A DNA stretch of 64,000 bases from an uncultured Chloroflexia bacterium (GTDB lineage Bacteria > Chloroflexota > Limnocylindria > Limnocylindrales > CSP1-4), in contig CAVQJC010000017.1 in NCBI GenBank assembly GCA_963712745.1, forward strand, positions 160,001-224,000, in the 5' to 3' direction. A model generated the notes under the pieces. The model worked only from the letters and a program-made list of their open reading frames with translations. It did no database searches and was not told the DNA's origin. Positions 443 through 17,985 of this stretch are shown here, one piece after another (within the stretch, counting starts at the first letter, position 1; each line of letters opens with the position of its first letter). The translations under genes and the position numbers were made by a program.

Positions 443-556
443 CCTAGCCGCGGCTGCATGAGGCCCATCCATGAGGATGGGCCTCCCCTCGCACATGGGG
501 GCGCGCGAGCGCCCCCGCCGGGCTCAGTCTTCGAGGCCGGAGGCTCAGCGGCGATG

Positions 557-601: not shown

Positions 602-603
602 GG

Positions 604-765: not shown

Positions 766-770
766 TCTGG

Positions 771-1763: not shown

Positions 1764-1937
1764 TGGCTGATCTCCGAAGTCGGTTGGATGACGGAGTGGC
1801 AATCATCGGGCAGCGACGGCCAGCGGGCAAGTCGCCGGGATAGGCTCGGAGTCCCCCGACCCGATGCCTCCTCGGTCTTCACCCTCCTCTCACGACCCAG
1901 CGGGTCGAGTGCCCCGCACATCGCCGGGACCCGCCCC

Positions 1938-3617
1938 CTACGCCCTGGCCAGCTTCTTGTAGCGGATGCGGTGCGGCTGGTCGGCCGCTGTCCCCAACTC
2001 CTTGCGCCGGAAGGCCTCGTAGTCGCTCACGTTCCCCTCGAAGAAGCGCACTTGGGAATCGCCCTCGAAGGCGAGGATGTGGGTCGCGATCCGGTCGAGG
2101 AACCAGCGGTCGTGGGAGATGACCACGACGCAGCCCGGGAACGACTCCAGGCCGGCCTCGAGCGCTCGCAGCGTGTCCACGTCGAGGTCGTTGGTCGGTT
2201 CGTCGAGCAGCAGCACGTTGCCACCCGTCTGCAGCAGCTTGGCGAGGTGCACCCGGTTCCGCTCGCCACCCGACAGTTGGCCGACGAGCTTCTGCTGGTC
2301 GGTGCCACGGAAGTTGAACGATGAGACATAGGCGCGGGCCGGGACCTCGCGTGCCCCGGTCTTGATGAACTCGGCACCCTGGGTGATCTCCCCGAATACC
2401 GTCTTGTCGGCGGCCAGGTCGTCGCGCTCCTGGTCGACATAGCTCAGCGCGACGGTGTCACCGATCGCGATCGACCCGGCGTCGGGTGCCTCCTGCCCGA
2501 CGAGCATCCGGAACAGCGTCGTCTTGCCGGCGCCGTTGGGTCCGATGATCCCGACGATGCCGGCCCGCGGCAGCGAGAACGTCAGGTCCTCGATGAGCAG
2601 CTTCTCGCGGTAGCCCTTGCGCAGGCCGGCGACATCGATGACCTTGTCACCGAGCCGCGGCCCCGGGGGGATGGCGATCTCGAGCTCGCGGGCGCTGGCC
2701 TTGTCGTCGTTCGCCTCGGCCAGGAGTCGCTCGTAGGCTGACAGTCGAGCCTTGCCCTTGGCCTGACGCGCCTTCGCACCCATGCGCACCCATTCGAGCT
2801 CGCGCGCGAGCGTCCGCTGCCGGGCATCGACCTGCTTCTGCTCGGTCGCCAGCCGCGCGAGCTTCTGCTCGAGCCAGCTCGAGTAGTTGCCACTGAACGG
2901 GATGCCGCGGCCCCGGTCGAGCTCAAGGATCCACTTGGCCACGTTGTCGAGGAAGTATCGATCATGGGTGATGGCGACGACGGTACCGGCGTATTCGGAC
3001 AGGAAGCGCTCCAGCCATTCGACCGACTCGGCATCGAGGTGGTTCGTCGGTTCGTCGAGCAGCAGCAGGTCCGGGTGGCGCATGAGCAGTCGTGCGAGCG
3101 CCACGCGGCGCTTCTCGCCGCCGGAGAGCGTCCTGACGTCGGCGTCGTCGGGCGGGCAACGGAGCGCGTCCATCGCGATGTCGACGTTGCGCTCGAGGTT
3201 CCACGCGTCCGCGGCTTCGATGCGGTCCTCGAGGACCGCCTGCTCGGCGCCGATCGCGTCGTAGTCGGCGTCGGGATCGGACCAGCGGGCCATGACCGCG
3301 TTGTACTGGTCGATGAGCGACTGGACCTCGCGGACGCCGTCGAGCACGTTGCCCTTGACGTCCTTCGCGGAGTCGAGCCCGGGCTCCTGCTCGAGGTATC
3401 CGACGGTGAAGCCCGGGGTCAGCCGAGCCTCGCCGTTGTAGCCGTCGTCGAGCCCGGCCATGATCTTGAGCAGGCTCGACTTGCCGGCGCCGTTGGGCCC
3501 GATGACCCCGATCTTGGCGCCGGGATAGAAGGACAGCGAGATGTCCTCCAGCACGGTCCGGTCGGGCGGATAGTGCCGGGCGAGCTTGTACGCGGTGTAG
3601 ATGAATTCGGCTGGCAT
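1938..3617 (-). CDS. ettA: Energy-dependent translational throttle ABC-F protein
   Basis: 559 aa with two ABC domains. N-terminus DISLSFYPGAKIGVIG and C-terminus QPHRIRYKKL are characteristic. Confidence 0.95.
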   Translation of the reverse strand: MPAEFIYTAYKLARHYPPDRTVLEDISLSFYPGAKIGVIGPNGAGKSSLLKIMAGLDDGYNGEARLTPGFTVGYLEQEPGLDSAKDVKGNVLDGVREVQSLIDQYNAVMARWSDPDADYDAIGAEQAVLEDRIEAADAWNLERNVDIAMDALRCPPDDADVRTLSGGEKRRVALARLLMRHPDLLLLDEPTNHLDAESVEWLERFLSEYAGTVVAITHDRYFLDNVAKWILELDRGRGIPFSGNYSSWLEQKLARLATEQKQVDARQRTLARELEWVRMGAKARQAKGKARLSAYERLLAEANDDKASARELEIAIPPGPRLGDKVIDVAGLRKGYREKLLIEDLTFSLPRAGIVGIIGPNGAGKTTLFRMLVGQEAPDAGSIAIGDTVALSYVDQERDDLAADKTVFGEITQGAEFIKTGAREVPARAYVSSFNFRGTDQQKLVGQLSGGERNRVHLAKLLQTGGNVLLLDEPTNDLDVDTLRALEAGLESFPGCVVVISHDRWFLDRIATHILAFEGDSQVRFFEGNVSDYEAFRRKELGTAADQPHRIRYKKLARA

Positions 3618-3699
3618 GAGGCTAGGGTAGCGACCCTCCGCGGGGCAGCGCCTCGGGCTCGGTCGACACGGACCGTGCGCGTCCTCAGCCCGCCTGGCT

Positions 3700-3801
3700 C
3701 ATCCTCCGCGCCCCGGCCATCGGGTCAAGCGCCGGACGGACCTGGGTCCCGCCTGGCCATGGCGGCGACGACCAGACCAAACCCGCTATTCATTATGTTT
3801 G
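3700..3801 (+). repeat. L + R repeat (R right arm divergent: tcattatgttt)
   Basis: catcctccgcgccccggccatcgggtcaagcgccggacgg ... ccatggcggcgacgaccagaccaaacccgctattcat. Confidence 0.9.
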
Positions 3802-3840
3802 CTGAAGCCAGCCGACCCCTGTGCTAGTCCTCGCTCGCGC

Positions 3841-4500
3841 CTACCCCTCGACGGGCAGGAACTCGAAGGTCTCGGCGATGGAGAGCCAGTCGGGGTTGGG
3901 AGCCTCCTCGCCACCACACGTGATGCCGTAGATCGTCGAGTCGTCCTGCAGCAGGAACTGCGTGCCCGCGAACGGTGTGGGTCAGTCTGGATCGACGAAG
4001 GTGTGATCGATGCGAACCGCCTCGCCCGCTGGAAGCGTCACGACGGTAACCGTCGCGCCGCCAGGGTATCGATCGTCGGCCTGGAGGCGGGCGACGTGCT
4101 CTGCCACCAGTGAGTCGAGTGGGACGATCGCAGCCATGACCTCGACCCCGCAGTAGCCTGGGACTTCCTGGGGGCCCACGTACGGCATCGCCAGGACGGG
4201 TGACTCCTCGCTGACGGCCTCGTAGAGCCAGCTGAGATCAGCGGCATAGGTCGAGTCGGTCACGTTGCTGAGCATCTCGCCTAGCGAGCCGGCATCGAGC
4301 CCAGACCGGCGGACCCAAGCCCAATCATCGGGAAACGCCAGCGCGAAGCCAGCACCGGGCACCTCCACTCGACCACCCAGGCCAACCGGTCCGGGCGACG
4401 GTTCCCGTGCCACCACCCCAGTCCCTAGTACTAGGACCAGCAGCCCTGCCAGCAGTCCGACTCGCTTGCCCACCACGTCCCCCATCCTGCTTGTCGTCAC
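3841..4500 (-). pseudogene. Family-A secreted PsbP-like protein interrupted by an in-frame TGA at 3982-3984
   Basis: Frame continues past the TGA as PTPFAGTQFLLQDDSTIYGITCGGEEAPNPDWLSIAETFEFLPVEG*. Signal peptide and GFALAFPDDW motif present. Confidence 0.8.
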
Positions 4501-4548
4501 ATCCTCTGCACCCCGCTCAGCGGGTCAAGGGCCGGACGGCCCGGCGGC
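4500..4548 (+). repeat. L repeat only (minus-strand promoter)
   Basis: catcctctgcaccccgctcagcgggtcaagggccggacggcccggcggc. Confidence 0.9.
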
Positions 4549-4568
4549 GTGACGGAGCTGGAGCGCGA

Positions 4569-4866
4569 TCAGTCCGGATCGAACGAAGCGGCGAGCGTCT
4601 GGAGCGCGGTTACCGCATCAGGGGCGTTGGAGGCCCGCCGATCACCGGACGGCCCCGAGGCCACGGCCTGCCACTCGCCGGATGGACGATCTCCCGAGCC
4701 ATCGGACGAGACGTAGTGCACGCCGGAACAGCACCCACCCATCAGGCAGCCGGTCCTCTGTTGCCAGCCAGGCGCTCGTCAGCCGATCGGGAACGGTCCC
4801 GTCTCGTCGGACCGTGGTCTGGCCGAACGCCGTCGCGACCGTCGCCAACTTCGCCCATACCATCAC
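4569..4866 (-). pseudogene. Small hypothetical cassette gene with a 1-nt frameshift near 4726
   Basis: MVWAKLATV..AWLATEDRLPDGWVL joins in another frame to SGVHYVSSDG..GEWQAVASGPSG..ALQTLAASFDPD*. Lies downstream of an L promoter. Confidence 0.5.
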
Positions 4867-4908
4867 GTCACCCCTGCCCGAGCGACCGGCACTCCCGGTC
4901 AGTACTCC

Positions 4909-5010
4909 CATAGTCCGCGCCTCGGTCAGCGGGTCAAGGGCCGGACGGCCCGGCGGCATGCGTGGCCATGGCGGCGACGACGAGACCAAACCCGCTATAC
5001 ATGGCGATTC
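4909..5010 (+). repeat. L + R repeat
   Basis: ..tcagcgggtcaagggccggacggcccggcggc..ccatggcggcgacgacgagaccaaacccgctatacatggcgattc. Confidence 0.92.
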
Positions 5011-5058
5011 CGTGCGGCCCACTGGAGCTTCGTGGACGCCCGCGAGAGAATCGTCGTA

Positions 5059-5131
5059 GCGGGAGGCAATGACGCGCGGCCCCAGCCCTGGCCGCCTGGA
5101 CCGTGCCGAGTCACTGGCGGACCCGACCCGC
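5059..5131 (+). ncRNA. c-di-GMP-II-like riboswitch aptamer (copy 1)
   Basis: GCGGG-AGGCAATGA-CGCGCGG..TGGCCGCCTG-GACCGTGCC-GAG-TCACTGGCGG-ACCCGA-CCCGC follows the class II layout (GGAAACAAUGA..UGGGCACUUG..GAGUUAGUAGUGCAACCGACC). Pairings GCGGG/CCCGC, CCGCC/GGCGG and GCGCGG/CCGTGC. Lies just 5' of the GAGGGGG RBS. Confidence 0.72.
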
Positions 5132-5149
5132 GCTTGTGAGGGGGATGTC

Positions 5150-6031
5150 ATGCGTACGTTGCGGCTGTCCCTGGTCGGGACGGTCATCGTGATGCTGCTC
5201 GGCGGGCTGGGCAGCACGGTGCTCGCGCACGATGAGATGCCTGGCGTCGGCGTCGAGGTCTTGGGCGACCTCGGCGCCATCCCAGGCGAGGCCATCCCCG
5301 AGGACGCCGTCCGTGTCGCGTTCGCTCGGACTAGCATCGAGCCGGGCGTGACCGGCGAGGTCGGCTCGGCCCAGCCCCATGAATGGGCCAGCCTGGAATG
5401 CGTCCAGCACGGTTCGCTCACGTTCACGGACAGCGACCGGACAGTGATCTGGCGGGTGGGCGAAACGACCGAGGACCTCCCCGCTGGGACGACCGCCAGC
5501 GTGAACACCGGGGATCTCGTGCTCTTCTATGACGGCGGGGCCGGGAGGAGTTTCGCGAACGCGGGGCCCGAGACGTACGTGACGTACTCCGTGGCGGTCG
5601 GCGACAGTGATGACCCGGCGGAGCCACCGGTCCTGCCCCCCGGCGTCTCCTGGCGGCTCCTCGTCTTCGACGTGCTGGCACCCGAGACCGTGGATCTCTG
5701 GTTCACGACACCGGTCGCGGTGGCGTTCGAGCGACTCGCGTTCTACCCCGGCGGCCAGCTCGTGCTTGGGTCTGACGAGGCCGGGTTGCTGCGCCTCCTG
5801 GCGCTCGAAGAAGGTCGCCTGGAGAGCGGCTTCGCGGCCCCATCCGAGGTCGCCGGGGCGCTGACCGACTCGGTCAGGTTCATCGCGCCCGACGCCGACA
5901 TTCTCACGTCGGGATCATTCGCGGACGACACGGTCTACGTGATCCGAAACGAGTCGGACGAGCCTGCGATTGTCCTGAGCGCCACGCTGACGCATGTTGA
6001 TGGGACCACGGAGGCCAAGCCCGCCGAGTAA
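5150..6031 (+). CDS. Secreted tandem cupin-like protein (cassette)
   Basis: ATG after GAGGGGG, signal peptide MRTLRLSLVGTVIVMLLGGL, two degenerate cupin repeats (V.HGSLT..GD..FAN.G and LEEGRLE..IRNESDEPA). Ends in PAE*. Confidence 0.7.
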   Translation: MRTLRLSLVGTVIVMLLGGLGSTVLAHDEMPGVGVEVLGDLGAIPGEAIPEDAVRVAFARTSIEPGVTGEVGSAQPHEWASLECVQHGSLTFTDSDRTVIWRVGETTEDLPAGTTASVNTGDLVLFYDGGAGRSFANAGPETYVTYSVAVGDSDDPAEPPVLPPGVSWRLLVFDVLAPETVDLWFTTPVAVAFERLAFYPGGQLVLGSDEAGLLRLLALEEGRLESGFAAPSEVAGALTDSVRFIAPDADILTSGSFADDTVYVIRNESDEPAIVLSATLTHVDGTTEAKPAE

Positions 6032-6034
6032 CCC

Positions 6035-6106
6035 CATCGCGCCGCCTCGGCTGCCTGCCGCCCTGCCCCATCCTCCGCGCCCCGCTCAGCCGGTCAAGGG
6101 CCGGAC
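6035..6106 (+). repeat. L' tail followed directly by an orphan L repeat
   Basis: catcgcgccgcctcggctgcctgc (6035-6058), then catcctccgcgccccgctcagccggtcaagggccggac (6069-6106). Confidence 0.85.
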
Positions 6107-6201
6107 TGACTGGTGGCATGGGTGGCGGCAGGCTACCCGGCATCACGTGGTCCCTTCGGCACTGTCGGTCCGAGTGGACACCTCGGTATCGTCGAGCCGC
6201 C

Positions 6202-6516
6202 ATGGCGGACCCGCTGGAGCCTGACACGCGGCCGGACGAGCCGCACATCACAAACCCATCGATGCGCGAGGCGGAAGAGCCGGACCTAGCGCGCGTGGCC
6301 GAGGAGTGGAGGCGAGAGACACGCCAAGCGAAGGACCAGCGGAACGCCGAAACCGAGGAGTGGCTGAAGGCGTTCGAGGCCAAGCATGAGAACCCGAGGG
6401 ACACCTTCCTCGGGCTGCTACTGCATGGTTGCTGTTGGTGGTCCCTCATGAGAATGGCGTGCGCCACCCTGCTGGTCGTGTTCGTCGCAGCTTGGGCCCG
6501 GCGTGCGAGGGGGTAG
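6202..6516 (+). CDS. Hypothetical protein with C-terminal membrane anchor (cassette)
   Basis: ATG 9 nt after TATCGT. Acidic helical N-terminus and hydrophobic C-terminus, followed by L'+R. Confidence 0.55.
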   Translation: MADPLEPDTRPDEPHITNPSMREAEEPDLARVAEEWRRETRQAKDQRNAETEEWLKAFEAKHENPRDTFLGLLLHGCCWWSLMRMACATLLVVFVAAWARRARG

Positions 6517-6521
6517 CACCT

Positions 6522-6591
6522 CATCGCGCCGCCTCGGCTACCTGCGCCATGGCGGCGATGACCAGACATAACCCGCTATTCATGGCGATTC
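6522..6591 (+). repeat. L' + R repeat
   Basis: catcgcgccgcctcggctacctgcg-ccatggcggcgatgaccagacataacccgctattcatggcgattc. Confidence 0.92.
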
Positions 6592-6609
6592 TGGAGTAGT
6601 GGTCAGTGG

Positions 6610-7791
6610 CTAGCCCGCCTCGGCGGGCAGGAACTCGAACGAGTCGGCGATGGAGAGCCAGCGGTCGTCGAAGCCGTGGTAGCCAAAGCAGCCAATCAGA
6701 GCTTCGGGGCCGTCGGTAGCGAGAGCGGTCTCGAAATCGATCAAGAACGTCGAGTTGTACGTCGCCCTGCCGGTGTCCGCTCGGGTGACGTAGTCGATGC
6801 GGTGAGACGGGCCGGCCGGCAGCATCAGCTCCGACACGGTCGGCCCCTCGGCCAGCCCAGGGTCGCCTCTCGCGTGATCGAGTGCGCCGGCGAGGACGTC
6901 ATCGAGCGAGCTGCCGACGGGCAGATCCGTGGATTGGACCAGGCACGTCGTGGCCGGCCACCCATCGGGCTCGACCGGTCCGAACACCAGGGCGTGGAAC
7001 GCGTACCCCTGGTCCGACAGCGCGCTCAGTTGCTCCAGCATCGTCGCGGTCGTATCGACCCAGCGCGGATGTGTCTGACGGACGAGGTCAAGGTTCTCCT
7101 CCGCGCTTGCCTCGTTCGGGTCAAGGATGACCCAGTCGTCCGGAAAGGTCAGTGCAAATCCTGGAGCGATAGCCTCCAGGCGACCGCCCATGCCGGCCGT
7201 GTCGCGGGGGCGGAGCCACTCGAGTGACTCGGCGATAGCGCGCCACCTATCCGGGGTCGGATGCGGACCTTCACACGTGAGGATGACGCTCCAGGCATCA
7301 CCGCCGATCATGAAGCCCTCGCGGTAGAGCGCCACCTCGTCCGTGTCTGGCGGCACGACCTGCCATCGATAAGTGACGGCGGGGCCGGCCGGGAGCTCGG
7401 TCTGCGAAATGCCCTCGTACGCATGGACACTGGGCTCTGCCCTGATGGCCGCATCCAGCCCTCCGTAGAACCCCGGGTCGAGGACCTCTTCTCCGTCCCA
7501 CGGGACCACGTCCAGATCGCAAGCGTCGCCCGATGGCGACATCAGGAAGAGTTCTGACTCAGTCTCCTCATCGAGCAGGCCGACCTGCGCGCCGGCGGCC
7601 TGCAACTGGGCGTCGAGTTCCACGGTGAGGTCGAAGGCGATCCAATCGGTCGGGATCGATACGGCGATGCCGTGCCTGGGCATCTCCACGCGCCCACCGA
7701 ACCACGGTGGAGGCTGCGACTCTGACGCCACCACCCCAGACCCCAACGACAGAACCATCAGTAGCGCCAGCAACCCGACTCGCCTGCCCAT
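6610..7791 (-). CDS. Family-A secreted protein with two PsbP-like domains (cassette)
   Basis: Signal peptide, then twice GGR(V/L)E..G(I/F)A..P.DW..C..LPAGP..C..DRW.(A/S)IA.S.E.L. Confidence 0.8.
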   Translation of the reverse strand: MGRRVGLLALLMVLSLGSGVVASESQPPPWFGGRVEMPRHGIAVSIPTDWIAFDLTVELDAQLQAAGAQVGLLDEETESELFLMSPSGDACDLDVVPWDGEEVLDPGFYGGLDAAIRAEPSVHAYEGISQTELPAGPAVTYRWQVVPPDTDEVALYREGFMIGGDAWSVILTCEGPHPTPDRWRAIAESLEWLRPRDTAGMGGRLEAIAPGFALTFPDDWVILDPNEASAEENLDLVRQTHPRWVDTTATMLEQLSALSDQGYAFHALVFGPVEPDGWPATTCLVQSTDLPVGSSLDDVLAGALDHARGDPGLAEGPTVSELMLPAGPSHRIDYVTRADTGRATYNSTFLIDFETALATDGPEALIGCFGYHGFDDRWLSIADSFEFLPAEAG

Positions 7792-7799
7792 AACGTCTC

Positions 7800-7892
7800 C
7801 ATCCTCCGCGCCCCGCGCCGCGGGTCAAGGGCCGGACGGCCCGACGGCCATGGCGGCGACGACCAGACCAAACCCGCTATTCATGGCGATTT
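7800..7892 (+). repeat. L + R repeat
   Basis: catcctccgcgccccgcgccgcgggtcaagggccggacggcccgacgg-ccatggcggcgacgaccagaccaaacccgctattcatggcgattt. Confidence 0.92.
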
Positions 7893-7960
7893 CGGAGTCG
7901 CGTTCGCGCCAGCGTGCTGACTGCGTTGGTGACCCCTCACGCTTGGCCTGATGCCCGCGC

Positions 7961-8350
7961 TCAGCGGTAGCCGAGGACGAGCGTTAAGAACAACAACAGG
8001 ATGACGAAGAAGCTCACGGCGGCGAGGACGAAGCTCACGAGACCGACGATCAACCACGCCCCGAGGCCATGGAGCCCCATTCGACGACCGGTCCCGAGGA
8101 TCACCAGCGGGACCAGGATCAGCCCAAGTAGCCCCAACCCGAGCCCGAGGTCGATACCTGCCGCTGAGTCCACCACGGCACCGACTCCGGAGAGCAGGAA
8201 CCAGGCGCCGATGAGCGTAGCCGTGGCCAGGACAGTGGTCGCCGATGCTGCCTTGGAGCGGTCCCGGAGCGCGTTGTACAGCCCCTCGCCCACCCAGCCG
8301 TACAGCCTCAAGTCATCACTCACGGCACCGCTCCCCGCGATGGTCTGCAT
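7961..8350 (-). CDS. Small multi-pass membrane protein (cassette)
   Basis: Three hydrophobic segments, downstream of an L promoter. Start may be 8350 or 8323. Confidence 0.6.
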   Translation of the reverse strand: MQTIAGSGAVSDDLRLYGWVGEGLYNALRDRSKAASATTVLATATLIGAWFLLSGVGAVVDSAAGIDLGLGLGLLGLILVPLVILGTGRRMGLHGLGAWLIVGLVSFVLAAVSFFVILLLFLTLVLGYR

Positions 8351-8380
8351 CGCGATCAGGTTTGTGCCCGACCATCCGCC

Positions 8381-8474
8381 CATCCTCCGCGCACCGGCCA
8401 GTGGGTCAAGGGCCGGACGGCATGCATCGCCATGGCGGCGACGATCAGACATAATCAGCTGTACATGGCGATTC
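8381..8474 (+). repeat. L + R repeat (spacer variant tcagctgt)
   Basis: catcctccgcgcaccggccagtgggtcaagggccggacgg..ccatggcggcgacgatcagacataatcagctgtacatggcgattc. Confidence 0.9.
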
Positions 8475-8523
8475 TCGATTGGCGCTCGAGAGCCGATGGA
8501 CGCCCGCGAGAGAATCGCAGGTA

Positions 8524-8593
8524 GCGGGAGGCGATGAGACGCGGCCGAGCAATGTCCGCCTGGACCGCCCGAGCCACTGGCCAACCCGGCCCG
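8524..8593 (+). ncRNA. c-di-GMP-II-like riboswitch aptamer (copy 2, diverged)
   Basis: gcgggaggcgatgagacgcggcc..tgtccgcctggaccgcccgagccactggccaacccggcccg, homologous to 5059-5131. Confidence 0.6.
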
Positions 8594-8613
8594 AGGATGA
8601 GAGGGGGGACTTC

Positions 8614-9150
8614 ATGCGCACGTTGCGGCCGTCACTGGCGGCGATCATCATCTTGGTGCTGGCCATGACATCGGGCAGCGCGGTCTTGGCCCAGTCGGAC
8701 GACGCGCCTGCCGCCTGGGTCGAAGCGACGAGCATCGCGCATCCCTGCGTCGGACTCGGGGAACCCGAGGAGTACATCGAGGAGACGCACGTGACCCGTC
8801 TCCGAGGCTCGGCTCTCGACTGCAGCATGGACCTTGGCGACGCCCGCCTGAAGGGCACTGCGGATATGAGCTGGAACTACGACTGCTACGACGCGGTCGG
8901 GGCCGGCTGCGTGCGTTGGGGCTCCGTGGTGCTGACTGGGCCCGATGGCACATGGGAGGGTACGTTCAGCGGCGTAGAGAGCCCCGCAGGGTCCGGTGCT
9001 TCCTTCTCTGCTGAGTACATCGAGCTCGCGGGCAGGGGTGCCTACGATGGGCTTGCGTACGTGGGTCAGGCAGCCAACCAGTTCAGCACTTCTGGACGGT
9101 GGTTCGGCATCGTGTACGAAGGCGAGTTGCCGTCTCCGTCCGCCGAGTAG
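8614..9150 (+). CDS. Family-B secreted beta-rich protein (cassette)
   Basis: Signal peptide MRTLRPSL.. and motif C..DARLKG..N.DC..C..WG..GPDGTWEG..L.G.GAYDGL. Ends in SAE*. Confidence 0.75.
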   Translation: MRTLRPSLAAIIILVLAMTSGSAVLAQSDDAPAAWVEATSIAHPCVGLGEPEEYIEETHVTRLRGSALDCSMDLGDARLKGTADMSWNYDCYDAVGAGCVRWGSVVLTGPDGTWEGTFSGVESPAGSGASFSAEYIELAGRGAYDGLAYVGQAANQFSTSGRWFGIVYEGELPSPSAE

Positions 9151-9153
9151 TCG

Positions 9154-9244
9154 CATCGCGTCGCCTCGGCTGCTTGCGGCTCAGGATCGGCGTGCATAGC
9201 CACGGCGGCGACGACCAGACCAAACCCGCTATACATGGCGATTC
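9154..9244 (+). repeat. L' + R repeat
   Basis: catcgcgtcgcctcggctgcttgcg..ccacggcggcgacgaccagaccaaacccgctatacatggcgattc. Confidence 0.9.
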
Positions 9245-9260
9245 CTGTTAGCGAGTCGGG

Positions 9261-10394
9261 TCAGGTCGGCAGTTCGGCCAGCACGTCCTCGATGGCCATC
9301 CCACCGCTGCCACTGACGATGAACAGGACACCGCGAACGGTATACATGAACGACCACGTCGAACCGTCATCCGCCTCCTCCGCGTCATCCGTCCAGACGG
9401 TACGTTCACCGTAGGTCCGAGTCGGCCACTCCGAGAGCGGCGGGGTCACAGAGGTGCCCATCTCGCTGCGCATGATCTGTACCAGTTGCTCCATCACGAC
9501 TACGGGCGGGACTCCAGCAACTCGGATGGCCTCAACGACGTACTGCTCCGGCACCGACCGGTCAGCCGTACGCGCATGTGCCACCTGCAGGTCCCTGAAC
9601 TCCTGTCCGAGGTCGGAGATCAAGCGTCGGAACAACCGGCGAGCGTCTTCCTCGGTCAGCACCAGAGACGAGCTGCTCTCGACGGACAGCGGAGTATCGC
9701 CGATCACGTGCGGCAGCAGGGAGATCACCTGGTCGGACGGGAGCGGCAGGGTCTCGACGGTCTCGGCGATGGAGAGCCAGTCGTCGTCGGGGCGTTGGAA
9801 AGCTGAGCACGTCATCGTCAAGATGTCGCCGCCGACGTCGATCAGATACATCGTGACGGGGCCCCAGACGTCACGGTCGTAGGCATTCTGGGCGGTCGCT
9901 CGAAGTACCAGACCGGGACCGGTCGGCACGTCCACCGGCATCGGCGGGTCGGCATCCACCATCGACTCCGCGTCCACCATCGTCTGGTACAGACCTTCGG
10001 CGAAGGCATCGAGCCGCCAGCCTTCCCCGAGCCTTGGATAGAACAAGCAGCTCTCCGTCTCCGCGAGGGAGCACACTGAGGACGAGAGGTCCATACCCAA
10101 TAGCGGGAAGGATCCCTCAGCGGCCAAGAGCGAGAGGTTCATGTGCAGGCACGAGAGCCCAGCTGCAGTCAGTCCACCATCAGGCGAGTCCATGGCGCGG
10201 ACCTGTGAGTCGATGTCGGCGCCAGGGTCGAACGCCACCCAGCCCTCGGGGAGGGTGACCGCGAAGCCGTACTCAGCGATCTCCACGCGCCCGCCCATCC
10301 ACGGCGGAGGCGAGGCATCCTCCGCCCGCGCGGACCCGAATACAGTCGCCAGCAGACTGACCACAAGCAGCGCCACGCTCGCCAGCTGTCGCAT
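9261..10394 (-). CDS. Secreted fusion of a family-A PsbP-like domain and a family-C domain (cassette)
   Basis: GGRVEI..GFAVTLPEGW..DDDWLSIAETVE, then a domain ending IEDVLAELPT that resembles 11958-12557. Confidence 0.8.
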   Translation of the reverse strand: MRQLASVALLVVSLLATVFGSARAEDASPPPWMGGRVEIAEYGFAVTLPEGWVAFDPGADIDSQVRAMDSPDGGLTAAGLSCLHMNLSLLAAEGSFPLLGMDLSSSVCSLAETESCLFYPRLGEGWRLDAFAEGLYQTMVDAESMVDADPPMPVDVPTGPGLVLRATAQNAYDRDVWGPVTMYLIDVGGDILTMTCSAFQRPDDDWLSIAETVETLPLPSDQVISLLPHVIGDTPLSVESSSSLVLTEEDARRLFRRLISDLGQEFRDLQVAHARTADRSVPEQYVVEAIRVAGVPPVVVMEQLVQIMRSEMGTSVTPPLSEWPTRTYGERTVWTDDAEEADDGSTWSFMYTVRGVLFIVSGSGGMAIEDVLAELPT

Positions 10395-10417
10395 TCTCGT
10401 ACCTGTGCGGATGCCCT

Positions 10418-10510
10418 CATCCTCCGCGCCCCGCTCAGCGGGTCAAGGGCCGGACGGCCCGGCGTCCATGGCGGCGACGACCAGACATAACCCGCTATAC
10501 ATGGCGATTC
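10418..10510 (+). repeat. L + R repeat
   Basis: catcctccgcgccccgctcagcgggtcaagggccggacggcccggcgt-ccatggcggcgacgaccagacataacccgctatacatggcgattc. Confidence 0.93.
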
Positions 10511-10530
10511 GTACCGTCCGCTCGGCCGAG

Positions 10531-11136
10531 CTACGCTCCGGCGGGCAGGAACTCGAAGGTCGCGGCGATGGACAGCCAGTCATCCTCGGGTGCTCCTCGC
10601 GAACAGCCGAGGAAGTACCACCGGTGTCCATCACCGAAGAGGTACATAGCGTATCGGTCAGCGGTCTCCAGCGACGCCCAGTCGGGGTACCCGCCGGGCT
10701 CGCCCCAGAAGTTCGCGTCTGAGGGCACCAGGTCCATGGTGACCCGTCCGACGCGTCCAGCCGGCAGGTCGATGACCGCGCCGGTGACGTTCCTGGCGGC
10801 GAGACTGTCGTCCCATCGCGAGACCAACGCATCGAGCCAGTCGTCAATCGACTCGACCGGCAGGACCGGCTCAACGACGGACGAGTCAAAGACCTCACAG
10901 TAGCCACCCGGCCCCGAGGAGGTCAGGCCCGGCAAGTACGGGGGGTGATCCAGCATCCCAATGACCTCCCACCCGTCGGGGAAGGCGATGGCGATTCCCA
11001 GATCCGGGAAGGTCCGGATGGTGGCGGCAGGCTGCCCCGTCACCTCCGGGCTCGCCGACGGTGACTGCGCCGTGATGGCGCTCGACGTCGTGGCTAGGAG
11101 ACACGCCACCGCAACCGAGATGATGAGCCGTCGCAT
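10531..11136 (-). CDS. Family-A secreted single PsbP-like domain protein (cassette)
   Basis: Signal peptide and GIAIAFPDGW..C..LPAGR..C..EDDWLSIAATFEFLPAGA*. Confidence 0.8.
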   Translation of the reverse strand: MRRLIISVAVACLLATTSSAITAQSPSASPEVTGQPAATIRTFPDLGIAIAFPDGWEVIGMLDHPPYLPGLTSSGPGGYCEVFDSSVVEPVLPVESIDDWLDALVSRWDDSLAARNVTGAVIDLPAGRVGRVTMDLVPSDANFWGEPGGYPDWASLETADRYAMYLFGDGHRWYFLGCSRGAPEDDWLSIAATFEFLPAGA

Positions 11137-11161
11137 GATCGACTCCCGTGCGCGATGCCCC

Positions 11162-11266
11162 CATCCTCTCCGCCCCGCTCAGTGGGTCAAGGGCCGGACG
11201 GCCCGGCGGCGTGCCATCGCCATGTACGGGCGATGACCAGACCAAACCCGCTATTCATGGCGATTC
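11162..11266 (+). repeat. L + R repeat
   Basis: catcctctccgccccgctcagtgggtcaagggccggacggcccggcggc..gaccagaccaaacccgctattcatggcgattc. Confidence 0.92.
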
Positions 11267-11377
11267 TCGCTTGGGGCGGAGTTCGCAGCAACGGCTCGTG
11301 GGACGCCTGCGCCTCGAGAATCGTCTACCTGGTACAGGCGGGATCGACTCGTCAGCGTGAGAATCGAGGGAGAGACC

Positions 11378-11899
11378 ATGGGAACGATCAGGATCGGCAT
11401 CATCACGCTCCTCACCATCGGCCAGCTGGCGGGCTCAGCGGTCAGTGTCGCAGCGCAGGACGATGAAGCCGTCGTCGTGAGCGGGGGCATGAGTCCGATT
11501 GGCGGCGCGAGCGTGCCGTGCGAGCTGGAGGAGGATTTCACCGAACTCGACGACGGCACGGCCAGCTGGACCTGGTGCTTCGGTCTCGTGATGGACGATC
11601 CACGGCTCACCGGCGACGGCTCCGTCGTCATGGCTGAGCGGGCGTACGACGGCTTCGGCCTGATCTCCTCGAGGGTGGAGATAGCCAACGAAGGAGGGTC
11701 GTGGTCGGGCAACGGCACCAGGGTCTTCATCGACGGAGATCCGGGGATCGATATCGAGCAACTCGTACTCACCGGGGCCGGTGGATATGGCGGCCTGACG
11801 GCCATCCTCTATGCCGATCCGGAGTTCGGCTTCCGCGGATTGGACTCGTGGAACGGCGTCATCATCTCGGGCGAGATGCCAGGACTACCTGCCGAGTAG
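11378..11899 (+). CDS. Family-B secreted beta-rich protein (cassette)
   Basis: ATG after GAGGGAG, signal peptide, DDPRLTG..GGSWSG..VLTGAGGYGGLTAI. Ends in LPAE*. Confidence 0.75.
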   Translation: MGTIRIGIITLLTIGQLAGSAVSVAAQDDEAVVVSGGMSPIGGASVPCELEEDFTELDDGTASWTWCFGLVMDDPRLTGDGSVVMAERAYDGFGLISSRVEIANEGGSWSGNGTRVFIDGDPGIDIEQLVLTGAGGYGGLTAILYADPEFGFRGLDSWNGVIISGEMPGLPAE

Positions 11900-11957
11900 A
11901 CCCCTCGCGCCACCTCCGCCTCGGCGGGCAGGAACTCGAAGGTCTCGGCGATGGAGG

Positions 11958-12557
11958 CTATGGCAGTTCGGCCAGCACGTCCTCGATGGTCGGTTCGGTC
12001 GGTGCGTCGGGGTCAGAGCCAACGCGACCAAGCCGCACTCTGAACAGGACCTCGCCCTTCGGGTAGAGGTACTCGATGAAGCGGTCGTCGGCGCCATCGA
12101 AGGTAACGACCACGACGCGGCGGTCACCGATGTCCTGCCAGTCCATAGCGGCCACTGGCAGTTGGTCGGCGACAGCTTGGGACTCGCGTCGCAACCCCTC
12201 GAACACGCCTGCCCAGAAGTCTGCCGCCTGAGCACCCACGATGCGTGTCGCCTCGATACTCAGGAACCGGTCTCCTTCCGGGTGAACTCCATAGCCGCCT
12301 GCGGCTCTGACATCCTCCGGCTCCAGTCCGAGTGGCACCAAGACATCACGCCAGCCTGCGGTCCACTCCGCATCGGCGGAAGAGACAGCCGAGAAGTCCA
12401 GGATGGACAGGTCGATGTCCCCGACCTGTGACGGGATGATGGACGCCAAGTCATCGGGTGCGAACGGCGGCGTGGCCTCCGCTGACGGCGACTGAGCCAA
12501 CGCCCCAGACCCCAGCGACAGAACCATCAGCCCTGCCAATAGCCCGGCTCGCTTCAC
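11958..12557 (-). CDS. Family-C secreted protein (cassette)
   Basis: GTG after AGGAGG. Signal peptide KRAGLLAGLMVLSLGSGALA resembles that of 7791. Ends in IEDVLAELP*. Confidence 0.75.
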   Translation of the reverse strand: MKRAGLLAGLMVLSLGSGALAQSPSAEATPPFAPDDLASIIPSQVGDIDLSILDFSAVSSADAEWTAGWRDVLVPLGLEPEDVRAAGGYGVHPEGDRFLSIEATRIVGAQAADFWAGVFEGLRRESQAVADQLPVAAMDWQDIGDRRVVVVTFDGADDRFIEYLYPKGEVLFRVRLGRVGSDPDAPTEPTIEDVLAELP

Positions 12558-12584
12558 GGCTCCACCCCTCCTGCGGATGCCGCT

Positions 12585-12686
12585 CATCCTCCGCGCCCCG
12601 AGCCCCGGGTCAAGGGCCGGACGGCCCGGCGGCACGCTCAGCCCTGGCGGCGACGACCAGACATAACCCGGTATTCATGGCGATTC
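12585..12686 (+). repeat. L + R repeat
   Basis: catcctccgcgccccgagccccgggtcaagggccggacggcccggcggc..ccctggcggcgacgaccagacataacccggtattcatggcgattc. Confidence 0.92.
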
Positions 12687-12734
12687 CGTGCGGCCCACTG
12701 GAGCCTCGTGGACGCCCGCGAGAGAATCGTCGTA

Positions 12735-12807
12735 GCGGGAGGCAAAGACGCGCGGCCCCAGCCCTGGCCGCCTGGACCGTGCCGAGTCACTGGCGGACCC
12801 GACCCGC
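12735..12807 (+). ncRNA. c-di-GMP-II-like riboswitch aptamer (copy 3)
   Basis: Identical to 5059-5131 except caaTga becomes caaAga. Confidence 0.68.
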
Positions 12808-12825
12808 GCTTGTGAGGGGGATGTC

Positions 12826-13359
12826 ATGCGTACGTTGCGGCTGTCCCTGGTCGGGACGGTCATCGTGATGCTGCTCGGCGGGCTGGCTGGAGCGGTGCTT
12901 GGCGCAGGACGAGGAGGAAGCGCCCGTATGGGTGACCCTCCTCGCGCAGGAGAACTGCCGGATGGAGGCGGACCCCGGCACCTACGAGCCAGGCGCAGGA
13001 CGCGCCAAGAAGATCCGCGACCTGCCCCTCGCTTGCGACCTCACCTACAGCGATGCCCGCCTTAGCGGGCCGAGCCACATGCTCTACAACGAGGACTGCT
13101 TCGAGTCGGGCATCTGCGTCGGGTGGGGGACCATCGGATCGACGGCTCCGACGGATCGTGGACCGGGTGGTGGCACGAGATCGACGACGAGGACGACGAT
13201 ACGAGCTTCCACATCGTGCTGACCGGCGACGGCGGTTACGAGGGACTCACCGCCATCATCTACTCACTCGGGGTCTGGGAAACGTTCCCCGACGAGTACG
13301 GTGTCATCTACCGGGGCGATCCGCCGCCAGGTCCCGAGGTGCTGTTGACTGCTGAGTAG
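12826..13359 (+). pseudogene. Family-B secreted protein with two compensating frameshifts (about 12899 and 13134)
   Basis: Three ORF pieces join as MRTLRLSL..AVL / AQDEEEAPVW..DARLSG..NEDC..CVGWGT / RIDGSDGSWTG..LTGDGGYEGLTA..LTAE*. Confidence 0.75.
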
Positions 13360-13587
13360 CAGATCACCAGGCGACCGCGCCACGCTCACCGCCGCGAGCG
13401 AGATCCATACAGGGATAGACACCGATACGACGGTCATCTACCCCTGCTCGAGCTGAGCCGCACCGACATCGACCCCACGGCGCCCTGAGAACAGCACCGC
13501 CACCCTGGAGCAGCACTTCCCGCTGCCGCGTTCATGACCTCCGCCTCTTGAACCGAGCGGTACTGCTGTGGCCTCATACCCATCTGA

Positions 13588-13661
13588 GCGGGAGGCGATG
13601 AGGCACGGCCCACACCCTGGCCGCTGGGACCGCGTCCGAGCCACTGGCGAAACCGGCCCGC
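13588..13661 (+). ncRNA. c-di-GMP-II-like riboswitch aptamer (copy 4)
   Basis: gcgggaggcgatgaggcacggcc..tggccgctgggaccgcgtccgagccactggcgaaaccggcccgc retains the canonical AACCG junction. Confidence 0.68.
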
Positions 13662-13679
13662 GCAGCAAAGGGGGATGTC

Positions 13680-14579
13680 ATGCGGACGTTGCGACTGTCC
13701 CTGTCGGTGACGGTCATCTTGGCACTGCTGAGCGGACTGGGCAGTGCGGTCGTGGCTCAGTCGGAGGAGCCGAACCAACAGAGCGCGTGGCCGAGCCTCA
13801 CGACGTCCCTCGAGTACGGCGAAGACCCAAAGCAGGTTATCCATGCCTACGAGCCAGAGCCTCGGACCGCGCCACGGCCCGCCGTCGTCTTCTTCTCCGG
13901 CGGCGGATACGACATCGGGGATCCGCTGTGGGTCCTCGACTCTGCACGCCAGATGGCCGAGGCTGGCTACGTGGCCTTTGCGGCGGGCTACCGCCTCCAC
14001 GATCCGTCGACGGGCACGAACCCATGGCCGGCACAACTCGAGGATGCCCAGGCAGCGGTCCGCTGGATCCGCGCTCACGCGGCGGACTACGGCGTCGACC
14101 CCGACCGGATCTGCGCCCTCGGCCATTCCTCCGGTGGCCACCTCGCGTCGCTGGTCGGCATGACCGATGCCCGCGACACGAGTGACCCTGACATGGCGGG
14201 CATCTCGAGCCGCGTCACCTGCGTCGTCAGCGTCTCGGGCGACGTCGACCTCACGATCGGCAACCCGTACCCGGAGCAGACGGCGGTCTACGAGAGCCTG
14301 CTGGGCGCCAGCTACGAGGATGACCCCGCCGCGTGGCGTGCGGTCTCGCCCGCCTACCTCGTCGATGCGGAGACCGTGCCCATCCTCATCATCCACGGCA
14401 CCCGCGACACCAACGTCGACGTTCAGGCGTCCCGGAACCTGGCGGCAGCCCTCGCCGAGGTCGACCGGGAGTTCGTCTACGCCGAGATAGACGCCGACCA
14501 CTTCGACATCTTCGAGCAGCCCCCGACCCTGCCGCTCACCGAGACGTTCCTCGTCTACCAACTCCATCCAGAGGAGTGA
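13680..14579 (+). CDS. Secreted alpha/beta hydrolase (HSL/BD-FAE-like esterase) (cassette)
   Basis: Oxyanion motif FSGGG, nucleophile elbow GHSSGG, IHGTRD and ADH. Carries the shared MRTLRLSL signal peptide. Confidence 0.88.
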   Translation: MRTLRLSLSVTVILALLSGLGSAVVAQSEEPNQQSAWPSLTTSLEYGEDPKQVIHAYEPEPRTAPRPAVVFFSGGGYDIGDPLWVLDSARQMAEAGYVAFAAGYRLHDPSTGTNPWPAQLEDAQAAVRWIRAHAADYGVDPDRICALGHSSGGHLASLVGMTDARDTSDPDMAGISSRVTCVVSVSGDVDLTIGNPYPEQTAVYESLLGASYEDDPAAWRAVSPAYLVDAETVPILIIHGTRDTNVDVQASRNLAAALAEVDREFVYAEIDADHFDIFEQPPTLPLTETFLVYQLHPEE

Positions 14580-14739
14580 TGACCGACCGGTCGATGGCGG
14601 CTCGATGGACGGCGAACCCAGAGCGAGTTGAAGAGATACGCGGCGCCAGCGCAAGCGCACCCGGCTGGAGCGTGGGCCGAGACCAAGGAGTAGGCGAGAG
14701 CTAGGAGTCGGCGACCAGCCGTGCCCACCGGCTGATTCG

Positions 14740-14830
14740 CTCGCGCCGCCTCGGCTGCCTGCGCCATGGCGACGACGACCAGACGTCGTACGCGTGGCGA
14801 CCAGACCAAGCCCGCTATACATGGCGATAC
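14740..14830 (+). repeat. L' + composite R (short variant followed by full core)
   Basis: tcgcgccgcctcggctgcctgcg-ccatggcgacgacgaccagac-gtcgtacgcgtggcg-accagaccaagcccgctatacatggcgatac. Confidence 0.88.
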
Positions 14831-14865
14831 GCCGGGTCGGCAGGTCAAGCGCGATACGGCCGCGC

Positions 14866-15840
14866 CTACTCCTCGGCGGGTCGGAACTCGAACGTCTCGG
14901 CGATGGACTGCCAACGATCCTGAGGGGCTGCAACCCCGAAGCAAGTAAGGGAGTAGTAGGACGTCCCGTCGGTCACGAGGTAGGCGCTCCTCTCGAGGTT
15001 CGCGCCCTCATCCACGTCATCGATGCGGACAGCCGAACCGCTGGGCAACTCGATGGCGGTCGTGGCTAGCGTCGCAGGCGCCGACCGGAACATGGCGATG
15101 AACGCCTCCACGAAGCCCTCGAGGTCGCTCCACGCCACGTCGGCGTGGCGTCCGTGGGGCCAGTACCAAGCACGGCAGGTGTCCTCGCCCGGCATGAACG
15201 CCAGCATCACCATCTGGCCCGTGGTGGTCGGCCTGTCTTCCCGCGTGAATACGACTGACCAGTCCTCGGGGAGGGTGAGCGCGAAGCCCGCTTCGGGCAC
15301 CCAGCCTCGCAAGCGACGTTCCAGGTTCGTCGGCTGGTCCTGCCGAAGCGGGTCGATAGCGATCGAGTTCGCGATAGACAGCCAGCGATCGGTCGGCGGG
15401 TCGGTGCTGGTGCAGGTCAGCACGCGATAGGACGAGCCGACCTCCCAGTAGTAGCTCGTCACCAGGTACACACCATCGGGCCCATAGTCCTGCCACGCCT
15501 CGGTGCGAAGGGCCGCTCCCTGCGGGGTCGCGACTGTCACGGCGGAGGCGGCGGCAGGACCGCCTCCTTGCTCGACCAACGCGGCCAGGCAAAGGGTCTC
15601 ATCGGTGTCGTACAGCGTGAGCAATGGCGTCACATCGCCTCGCGTGGTCAACTCGTACGGATCGCCGGGCGTGGCCTCCCAGAGGTGCGGCGGGACGACC
15701 CAGAGCCCGGAGCCCAGGCTCTCGACACGACCTGCGGACCAGAACGTCGCTTCGGTCGTTGGTGTCGGCGACTGCGCGGCCACACCATTCGCAACCATCG
15801 CGAGGGTCAGCCCGGCCAGCATTCCAGATCGTCTGCGCAT
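14866..15840 (-). CDS. Family-A secreted protein with two PsbP-like domains (cassette)
   Basis: Signal peptide MRRRSGMLAGL.., then ..LTCTSTDPPTDRWLSIANSI.. and GFALTLPEDW..LTC..QDRWQSIAETFEFRPAEE*. Confidence 0.8.
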   Translation of the reverse strand: MRRRSGMLAGLTLAMVANGVAAQSPTPTTEATFWSAGRVESLGSGLWVVPPHLWEATPGDPYELTTRGDVTPLLTLYDTDETLCLAALVEQGGGPAAASAVTVATPQGAALRTEAWQDYGPDGVYLVTSYYWEVGSSYRVLTCTSTDPPTDRWLSIANSIAIDPLRQDQPTNLERRLRGWVPEAGFALTLPEDWSVVFTREDRPTTTGQMVMLAFMPGEDTCRAWYWPHGRHADVAWSDLEGFVEAFIAMFRSAPATLATTAIELPSGSAVRIDDVDEGANLERSAYLVTDGTSYYSLTCFGVAAPQDRWQSIAETFEFRPAEE

Positions 15841-15849
15841 CACTTGCCC

Positions 15850-15943
15850 CATCCTCGCCTGCCGGCTCAGTCGGTCAAGGGCCGGACAGCCCGGCGGCAT
15901 GCATCGCCATGGTGCCGACGACCAGACGGCGTACGCCTGGCGA
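15850..15943 (+). repeat. L + terminal short-variant R (right end of array)
   Basis: catcctcgcctgccggctcagtcggtcaagggccggacagcccggcggc..ccatggtgccgacgaccagac-ggcgtacgcc-tggcga. Confidence 0.85.
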
Positions 15944-16020
15944 GTGGAGGAGCTCGAGACGCGAAGACGCGGCACCCCTCCACGGAATGCCGCGCCGTCG
16001 TCCGCGAGTGACTGCCGGAA

Positions 16021-16998: not shown

Positions 16999-17008
16999 GA
17001 TGCGCCCC

Positions 17009-17965: not shown

Positions 17966-17985
17966 CGGGGGTTCTCTTCCTCCTG

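Follow-up and report, generated by a model that had tools for sequence, protein, structure and literature searches.

Leaders of the c-di-GMP-II riboswitch clan, with variant pocket bases, before genes for putatively secreted proteins in an uncultured Chloroflexia bacterium

The window analysed here is a stretch of 64,000 nucleotides (nt) from an uncultured Chloroflexia bacterium (GenBank assembly GCA_963712745.1, contig CAVQJC010000017.1, positions 160,001 to 224,000; all coordinates below are those of the window). From about 3700 to 16000 it carries an array of small genes on both strands, flanked on one side by an ABC-F ATPase gene (1938-3617) and on the other by two carbamoyltransferase genes (16021-17965). 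Four genes of this array are preceded by a conserved leader, and the four open reading frames (ORFs) behind these leaders open with a common signal peptide, MRTLRLSL.... A sequence-only reading of the window had taken the leaders for relatives of the class II cyclic di-GMP (c-di-GMP-II) riboswitch carried inside gene cassettes. All four leaders were found again, starting at 5059, 8524, 12735 and 13588 (copies 1 to 4), and the riboswitch part of that proposal held at the level of the clan, as described below; the cassette part did not.

A search pattern made from the conserved blocks of the leaders matched the window exactly four times (5061, 8526, 12737 and 13590, all on the + strand), and none of 100 dinucleotide-preserving shuffles of the window contained any match. 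An Rfam cmscan search of the window at E-values up to 1 matched all four copies end to end (model positions 1-85 or 1-86) and returned no clan match beyond them; copies 1, 3 and 4 scored above the curated thresholds of Rfam variant families, while copy 2 fell below (Table 1). In the order of their blocks the four leaders agree with the class II c-di-GMP riboswitch clan (Rfam CL00127), to which they belong. Our own covariance model of the lineage, run with filters off, gave the four copies 84.7, 83.5, 79.2 and 60.3 bits, scores that are inflated because the 124 instances used to build the model include the four window copies; copy 2 had the 60.3 bits, as against 79-85 bits for the other three. 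This model found no fifth copy in the window. Its next match (51995-52076, 19.7 bits) lies inside a thiolase ORF and was taken as chance.

Relatives were collected by scanning one genome per species with a fixed block pattern, which biases the sample to sequences that fit the pattern; these species-representative genomes gave at least 121 distinct instances in at least 118 loci. Among the matches listed, the hosts were nearly all Chloroflexota metagenome-assembled genomes (MAGs) of Limnocylindria type (labelled 'Chloroflexia', Candidatus Limnocylindria, Limnocylindrales, CSP1-4, RBG_16_72_14 or GWC2_73_18), with a few loci in bins labelled Thermaceae, Isosphaeraceae, Cellulomonas, Dormibacterota and others. 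We aligned 124 instances, namely the four of the window and 120 from the loci (one locus instance, with its flank missing, was dropped); many columns were fixed by the pattern itself, and invariance there is ascertainment. In this alignment 78.7% of the cells of the Rfam structure with its pseudoknot were paired, against 34.6-39.2% when partners were slid. Compensatory changes were seen in helix P3, where all eight pairs changed on both sides, and in the inner part of helix P1, whose five inner pairs were 79-100% canonical; four pairs of the pseudoknot were 98-100% canonical and almost invariant. The six outer pairs that the Rfam model gives P1 were paired in about 40% of cases, not above chance, and are not counted as real for this lineage.

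Against this background copies 1, 3 and 4, which retain every invariant position of the family, look intact, and copy 2 appears to be decaying. Copies 1, 3 and 4 have the closing helix GCGGG/CCCGC described in the sequence-only reading; that of copy 2 is shortened to CGGG/CCCG, with a G x A mismatch at the outer pair. The pseudoknot, in which the P3 loop pairs with UGGCG of the 3' strand, occurs in copies 1, 3 and 4 and not in copy 2, which has 2 nt deleted on the 3' strand of P3 and is alone among the 124 instances in breaking the pseudoknot pair C45-G76. Copy 3 differs from copy 1 only by a U to A change in the P2-P3 junction. The degenerate copy 2, the paralog at 11378-11899 that has no aptamer, the out-of-frame ORF behind copy 3 and a weak 34.5-bit copy in a related array would all suit the view that the leaders are relics, homogenised by gene conversion and binding nothing now. 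We hold this to be very unlikely, as copies 1, 3 and 4 keep all invariant positions and as conservation with compensatory changes spans 78 assemblies (among the matches listed), for which conversion within one genome is insufficient.

For the ligand pocket we used the residue names of PMC13715770 together with the letters at model positions 69, 70 and 73. In the solved c-di-GMP-II structure described there (3Q3Z), A69 reads one ligand guanine and G73 the other, A70 stacks between both ligand bases, A61 forms the ceiling of the pocket, and an A-U pair opens P2. The same model positions read G-C-G in RF03170 and G-A-G in RF03169, fitting the names of the two families, and the numbering therefore carries over. 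The junction difference that had been noted earlier (AACCG versus ACCCG) is real and sits at pocket position 70: copies 1-3 have ACCCG and copy 4 has AACCG. The triad at positions 69, 70 and 73 is A-C-G in copies 1-3 and A-A-G, the parental triad, in copy 4; therefore G69, the base by which the GAG and GCG variants are defined, is absent from all of the copies. Of the bases defining RF03170, C70 and G73 are present in copies 1-3, and of those defining RF03169, A70 and G73 are present in copy 4, position 69 being A and not G in each. A12, A61 and G73 are kept in all four copies, and the first P2 pair is G-C, versus A-U in the c-di-GMP-II parent. To judge by these bases, copies 1-3 are a putative c-di-GMP-II fold with a new pocket variant whose combination, A-C-G, is without a name in Rfam, and copy 4 is a candidate for the parental A-A-G pocket on a variant scaffold. 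The Rfam search displays only the best clan member for each place, and the parent, RF01786, was never that member (0/20 riboswitch matches in 18 loci, 0/4 window copies). The A-A-G and A-C-G sequences went to RF03169 or RF03170 irrespective of their triad; what the variant models follow is therefore the high-G+C scaffold shared by the lineage and not the pocket, and Rfam variant names should not stand for pocket bases in annotation.

Upstream of the aptamers, the sequence-only reading had placed a GAGAAT hexamer, resembling a -10 element, 7 nt before three of the leaders. This distance to GCGGG is correct for copies 1 and 3; in copy 2 it is 8 nt, not 7. Copy 4 is without GAGAAT and has TTGAAC-N18-CCTCAT in its place, and the promoter block of copy 4 (..GTGACCTCCGCCTCTTG..) also stands upstream of the relatives in the related loci L049, L095 and L096. 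Comparison across the family backs the reading of the hexamer as a -10 element: in 68 of the 124 instances a [T/G]AnnnT has its last base 8-13 nt upstream of the GGGA core, against 6-13 of 124 in six equally wide control windows. A -10 element with fixed spacing is thereby supported, as is a transcript that would begin at the aptamer, with a predicted start of transcription at the aptamer 5' end. A sigma-70 consensus scan of the array found one site versus 1.1 expected, located away from the aptamers.

At the other end, the short distance to the start codon stood as described: 18 nt lie between the P1 3' end (5131) and the ATG (5150) in copy 1, and 18-19 nt overall. The Shine-Dalgarno-like sequence GAGGGGGA begins 6-9 nt after P1 across the copies and is kept in relatives whose ORFs begin with MRT. 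The stretches from the aptamers to their ATGs are free of terminator-like sites, of which the whole array has three versus 2.3 expected. When P1 was forced, the modelled probability that the Shine-Dalgarno is unpaired rose from 0.45 to 0.59 (mean over 13 A-C-G relatives with an MRT signal peptide), and accessibility likewise rose in 4/4 window copies; this small shift, computed with nearest-neighbour energies and with the pseudoknot left out, hints weakly at a translational ON switch. The first ~13 codons are kept between species at the nucleotide level, rare codons included, and the start of the coding region may thus belong to the expression platform or regulatory RNA. Such codon conservation, together with the finding that RNAalifold on 15 relatives gave no conserved helix sequestering the ribosome-binding site, would also agree with control on transcription (by Rho-dependent termination) or on mRNA stability rather than on translation initiation. 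We regard that alternative as unlikely given how closely the ribosome-binding site and ATG follow P1 and given the absence of an intrinsic terminator between the aptamers and their ATGs. As a separate observation, the P3 loop reads GUACGU in several A-C-G relatives (L031, 1992-2078; L049, L065, L095, L096 and L115), and this contains a palindrome that recurs at ORF codons 2-4 (AUG CGU ACG UUG) of the same relatives, where a pairing between loop and start could form; the window copies are without GUACGU in the P3 loop.

The product of 5150-6031 has nine homologs, all unnamed or 'hypothetical'; its AlphaFold2 model (mean predicted local distance difference test score, pLDDT, 78.1) found 1uik_A and 2vqa_A (MncA) as best Foldseek matches (E 1.6e-08, TMq 0.37-0.40), and an ortholog with 56% identity in L031-L033 also lies behind an A-C-G aptamer. 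The 8614-9150 protein has no Pfam or NCBIfam match and five homologs counting itself, all hypothetical. Its homolog behind copy 3 changes frame at 12885-12900 (GG) and 13118-13128 (GGGGG), which are typical sites of long-read assembly errors, and it is either a real pseudogene or the product of a homopolymer assembly error. The aptamer-free paralog at 11378-11899 is 28.6% identical to the 8614 protein, and the lineage model gave only 13.5 bits at 11308-11358, i.e., no aptamer precedes it. The esterase gene behind copy 4 encodes the only regulated protein of the window with a Pfam or NCBIfam family (Pfam BD-FAE, 1.4e-41; Abhydrolase_3, 5.8e-16; the NCBIfam matches are only under curated cut-offs). 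In the family at large, a rough hydropathy criterion classes 70 of 107 downstream ORFs as apparently secreted or membrane-bound. ORFs starting MRT[LVMA][RAV] were behind an A69 aptamer in 16/16 cases (13 ACG and 3 AAG, giving the letters at 69, 70 and 73) and behind none of the 60 GAG or 10 GCG aptamers with an ORF found; 10 of 125 instances had no ORF by the rule used. This association reflects an aptamer and a signal peptide inherited together as one unit, and its cases are not independent.

The same unit can be seen within the window. Copies 1 and 3 lie in stretches that are almost identical (Table 1), and their genes are unrelated past the signal peptide, the likeness stopping after codon 20 in a pairwise alignment; across families the four proteins are alike only in their first 26-32 residues. 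With near-identical 5' modules before unrelated gene bodies, the units are therefore paralogs among which the 5' module is exchanged by duplication or gene conversion.

This bears on the earlier proposal that the leaders travel in cassettes, which we could not sustain. On that view the units would be integron-type or other mobile gene cassettes, each carrying its own riboswitch. It is encouraged by repeats of 48-130 nt, all in one orientation, that separate ~12 small genes between 3700 and 16000, and by a G+C content at third codon positions (GC3) of 0.73-0.86 in array genes, below the 0.90-0.93 of the flanks. A Pfam screen of 60 ORFs (25 + 35) across the 64-kb window, however, found no integrase, recombinase or transposase, and 3600-16100 holds no attC-like RYYYAAC...GTTRRRY pair on either strand (its + strand has no GTTRRRY and one RYYYAAC). 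The genes lie on both strands between housekeeping flanks, neighbouring genes are paralogous to each other, and the repeats contain a promoter-like TTGACC-N16-GAGGAT on the minus strand before minus-strand paralogs. The integron reading was rejected on the missing integrase and attC cores, and mobile cassettes of any kind are extremely improbable here.

Based on these results, the explanation we favour, with moderate confidence in the whole, is that the leaders are c-di-GMP-II clan aptamers through which a cyclic dinucleotide controls translation initiation, carried on a duplicated module that is not mobile. The aptamer would stand at the extreme 5' end of the mRNA, preceded at 7-10 nt from P1 by a -10-like hexamer and followed after 6-9 nt by the strong Shine-Dalgarno of a gene whose product is secreted by the Sec route, the targets being a bicupin-like protein, two members of the 178-residue family and the esterase. 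On binding, the dinucleotide would fix P1 and the pseudoknot in place and thereby alter the access of ribosomes to the adjacent start region; no space is left for a terminator, and none was seen. For copy 4 at least, with its A69, A70 and G73, c-di-GMP is the most probable ligand; copies 1-3 retain the base-reading A69 and G73. The module of promoter, aptamer, ribosome-binding site and signal peptide (MRTLRLSL...) would have been duplicated and gene-converted onto different gene bodies, spreading within a chromosomal island of paralogous secreted-protein genes.

Several points weigh against this explanation. The minimum-free-energy folds of the four leaders were no better than those of shuffles (z +0.14 to +1.5). 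The best models were RF03169 or RF03170, not the parent, for all matches, and copies 1-3 carry C70 where the parent has the ligand-stacking adenine. RNAalifold gave no conserved helix over the ribosome-binding site, and the accessibility shift is small and was modelled without the pseudoknot. With copy 2 decayed and the ORF behind copy 3 frameshifted, part of the array may be non-functional. No GGDEF, EAL or HD-GYP gene was found among the 60 screened window ORFs, from which little can be concluded for the genome. The GAG and GCG variants were reportedly defined by Weinberg and colleagues (in PNAS, 2017), who are said to have proposed changed ligands for them, and to our knowledge both are still orphans without a ligand.

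Whether the array answers one signal or several can be approached through the pocket bases of the 124 instances, which were GAG in 67, ACG in 31, AAG in 14, GCG in 10, and AGG and TAG in one each. Position 69 is a purine (R) in 123/124 and position 70 is A or C (M) in 123/124, and all four R/M combinations are found on one scaffold in the window and its relatives. These narrow limits, the place of position 70 among the pocket residues of the solved parent, the company of G at position 74 with ACG (21/31) rather than GAG (7/67), and the mixture of pocket types in 11 of the 24 assemblies with more than one instance (among the matches listed) would fit a scheme in which copies 1-3 (A-C-G) respond to another ligand than copy 4 (A-A-G), the array answering two second messengers. 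We think this fairly unlikely. Nine of the 16 multi-member clusters of downstream proteins (from 107 ORFs of at least 70 residues) lie under mixed pocket types; for instance, a cluster of SRPBCC proteins lies under 4 GAG, 2 GCG and 1 ACG aptamers, with a further SRPBCC ortholog under AAG by our own reading (L053:2694-2778), and the MRT-signal-peptide group has ACG and AAG before the same protein cluster. In addition, a tree built without the pocket columns requires 33 or more changes of pocket state among the 124 aptamers (shuffled data: mean 51.7, minimum 46), although this tree is weak, the alignment being only ~80 nt long. The regulon data lean toward one signal or closely related signals, and against separate regulons.

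A different possibility is that the Limnocylindria-type scaffold as a whole, whichever of the four pocket types it carries, has some other ligand than c-di-GMP and resembles c-di-GMP-II only by descent. This is possible, if doubtful. In its favour, 20/20 riboswitch matches in the 18 loci and 4/4 window copies were best with RF03169 or RF03170, and the first P2 pair is G-C, not the parental A-U; in an engineered relative, such a P2 change shifts selectivity among the isomers of cyclic GMP-AMP (cGAMP) (PMC13715770). Our literature search, moreover, found no ligand reported for the GAG or GCG variants and no account of them in Chloroflexota or Limnocylindria; in their accessible parts, PMC9943018, PMC12452182, PMC10043782, PMC9481103 and PMC7266159 list the models or treat other classes only. 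Against it, 14 of the 124 instances, copy 4 included, retain A69/A70/G73 plus A61 and A12, and secreted proteins dominate the regulon, which fits c-di-GMP-II riboswitches such as those before surface-anchor genes in the accessible part of PMC9481103.

Returning to control by a cyclic dinucleotide through a duplicated module, which we prefer, one can speculate further that A69-C70-G73 (31/124, unseparated by Rfam) is a fourth natural pocket type with its own ligand or a shifted affinity, welded to the signal peptide as a portable unit that gene conversion places ahead of unrelated secreted proteins, such that the array, with its ACG and AAG copies, would read two signals or two thresholds. We put this forward as a conjecture that is unlikely to hold in full; if it were true, control could be gained or lost gene by gene. 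Apart from this conjecture, four R/M combinations on one scaffold, often in one genome and before the same gene families, amount to a natural mutant series in which the roles of pocket positions 69 and 70 can be asked. The orphan variants are also tied to a concrete regulon of secreted proteins, SRPBCC proteins and esterases in Limnocylindria-type Chloroflexota, an abundant and uncultured group of soil and freshwater, and the unit of promoter, aptamer and signal peptide suggests that riboswitch control can spread in a genome without mobile elements.

In comparison with known systems, the window copies share with c-di-GMP-II (RF01786; 3Q3Z in PMC13715770) the order of P1, P2, P3 and pseudoknot, A12, the A61 ceiling and G73 in all four copies (A69 and A70 in addition in copy 4), and a place in the 5' leader of genes for extracellular proteins. 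They differ from it in never matching the parent model best, in the G-C first pair of P2, in the C70 of copies 1-3, in their hosts (Chloroflexota MAGs rather than Firmicutes), and in having the ribosome-binding site adjacent and no terminator. RF03170 (c-di-GMP-II-GCG) is the best model for copies 1-3 and has C70 and G73 in common with them, but these copies have A69 instead of the defining G69, and copy 2 is sub-threshold; RF03169 (c-di-GMP-II-GAG) is the best model for copy 4 and shares A70 and G73 with it, but A69 makes the triad of copy 4 the parental AAG. The tandem c-di-GMP-II riboswitches before surface-anchor genes of Paraclostridium, as far as the accessible part of PMC9481103 describes them, are likewise clustered aptamers of the same clan with extracellular targets; there several aptamers share one leader, whereas in the window each aptamer has one promoter-like site and one gene. 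Integron cassettes with attC resemble the array in their short genes and similar repeats of one orientation, and differ from it in that the window is without integrase or attC cores and has paralogous genes on both strands.

Table 1. Positions of the aptamers and of other features of the array
Feature	Position	Strand	Details
Aptamer copy 1	5053-5137	+	RF03170 (c-di-GMP-II-GCG), 58.2 bits, E 5.1e-08, gathering score 47.9; canonical pairs P1 5/5, P2 3/3, P3 7/8, pseudoknot 5/5
P1 strands of copy 1	5059-5063 with 5127-5131
Aptamer copy 2	8518-8600	+	RF03170, 35.6 bits, E 0.014, gathering score 47.9 missed; canonical pairs P1 4/5, P2 3/3, P3 5/8, pseudoknot 3/5
Aptamer copy 3	12729-12813	+	RF03170, 57.0 bits, E 1e-07, gathering score 47.9; canonical pairs P1 5/5, P2 3/3, P3 7/8, pseudoknot 5/5
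Aptamer copy 4	13582-13667	+	RF03169 (c-di-GMP-II-GAG), 56.1 bits, E 2.1e-08, gathering score 40; canonical pairs P1 5/5, P2 3/3, P3 6/8, pseudoknot 4/5
GAGAAT, copy 1	5046-5051	+	-10-like hexamer
GAGAAT, copy 2	8510-8515	+	-10-like hexamer
GAGAAT, copy 3	12722-12727	+	-10-like hexamer
TTGAAC-N18-CCTCAT, copy 4	13548-13577	+	promoter-like (putative, from sequence); ends 10 nt before P1 of copy 4
Shine-Dalgarno-like GAGGGGGA	5138-5145	+	6 nt after P1, 4 nt before ATG 5150
ORF behind copy 1	5150-6031	+	293 residues, signal peptide MRTLRLSLVGTV..., bicupin-like fold predicted
ORF behind copy 2	8614-9150	+	178 residues, signal peptide MRTLRPSL..., paralogs at 11378-11899 and 12826-13359
ORF behind copy 3	12826-13359	+	homolog of the 8614 protein, readable only across three frames (12826.., 12899.., 13123..)
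ORF behind copy 4	13680-14579	+	299 residues, signal peptide MRTLRLSLSV..., secreted alpha/beta-hydrolase esterase
Aptamer-free paralog	11316-11899	+	GAGAAT block 11316-11321, 56-nt leader, ORF 11378-11899
Near-identical stretches	5000-5210 and 12676-12886	+	209/211 identical; promoter block, aptamer, ribosome-binding site, 20 codons
Module B	4954-5011, 8418-8475, 12630-12687	+	upstream of the promoter blocks of copies 1, 2 and 3
Module A (10 copies)	3698-3750, 4498-4550, 4907-4960, 6067-6110, 7798-7850, 8380-8420, 10416-10465, 11160-11210, 12583-12635, 15848-15900
Module C (..CATCGCGCCGCCTCGGCTGCCTGC)	6014-6058, 6501-6545, 9133-9177, 14718-14762		starts at + strand stop codons
Minus-strand paralog family	3847-4473, 6610-7791, 9261-10394, 10531-11136, 11958-12635, 14866-15975	-

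The intergenic repeats of the array, all in + orientation, comprise 12 copies of module B, 10 of module A and 4 of module C. Module B is an imperfect palindrome of 48-58 nt (GCCATGG...CATGGC arms) whose 12 copies spread over 545-15952 (further copies are, e.g., 7836-7893 and 10454-10511); it sits in intergenic positions ~35-45 nt upstream of the GAGAAT blocks of riboswitch genes and precedes GAGAAT block and aptamer in the MAG loci L030-L033 as well. Neither an Rfam family nor a fold signal was found for it, and it may be the binding site of a regulator. Module A, read on the minus strand, contains TTGACC-N16-GAGGAT right before the starts of minus-strand paralogs and looks like the promoter of that family. 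A second structured RNA leader on the minus strand, formed by modules A and B, was considered and rejected: Rfam gave no family for them and only a microRNA match at chance level (20.4 bits versus a gathering score of 100), the six usable rows of an eight-row comparison showed no compensatory pairs, and the fold was no better than shuffles (z = -0.56). The + strand genes at whose stop codon module C starts have ..PAE or ..SAE at the C-terminus, and module C could fold with the beginning of module B into a G+C-rich hairpin lacking a U tract. The minus-strand paralogs themselves are 25-45% identical, with an internal repeat of ~190 residues, a common N-terminal hydrophobic segment and a common C-terminal motif (..SIAETFEFLPAE), and have no Pfam or NCBIfam match.

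A contig of a related MAG holds five aptamer matches in ~5.9 kb, one of only 34.5 bits, in the order stop codon, module C, module B, GAGAAT block, aptamer. Decayed aptamers were seen in the related array at about 3600-3730 of L032 (minus strand) and at 3777-3864 of L033; one decayed relative starts GCGGGAGGC.. and then has an internal deletion, and another is the 34.5-bit match. Aptamer loss seems to recur in such arrays.

At the left edge of the window, an ORF for an SRPBCC (polyketide-cyclase-like) protein (5-442, +) starts 4 nt into the window, and its orthologs in L003, L036, L053 and L081 (58-68% identity) lie directly behind aptamers of the family; a fifth aptamer is probably present just outside the window, upstream of this ORF. 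Elsewhere in the window, six overlapping units of 59 nt, spaced alternately 24 and 18 nt, occupy 46186-46352 within a minus-strand ORF (46176-46439) that has no Pfam family. Two genes encode PIN-domain (VapC-like) proteins (30551-30997 and 41184-41603, both minus strand), and a small ORF upstream of the second (41603-41896, minus strand) could be its antitoxin. Finally, the region 16021-28656 encodes two carbamoyltransferase paralogs, two pyridoxal phosphate (PLP)-dependent enzymes, a molybdopterin enzyme of the xanthine dehydrogenase type, an amidohydrolase and a dihydropyrimidine-dehydrogenase-like protein, and it looks like a locus for nucleobase catabolism.

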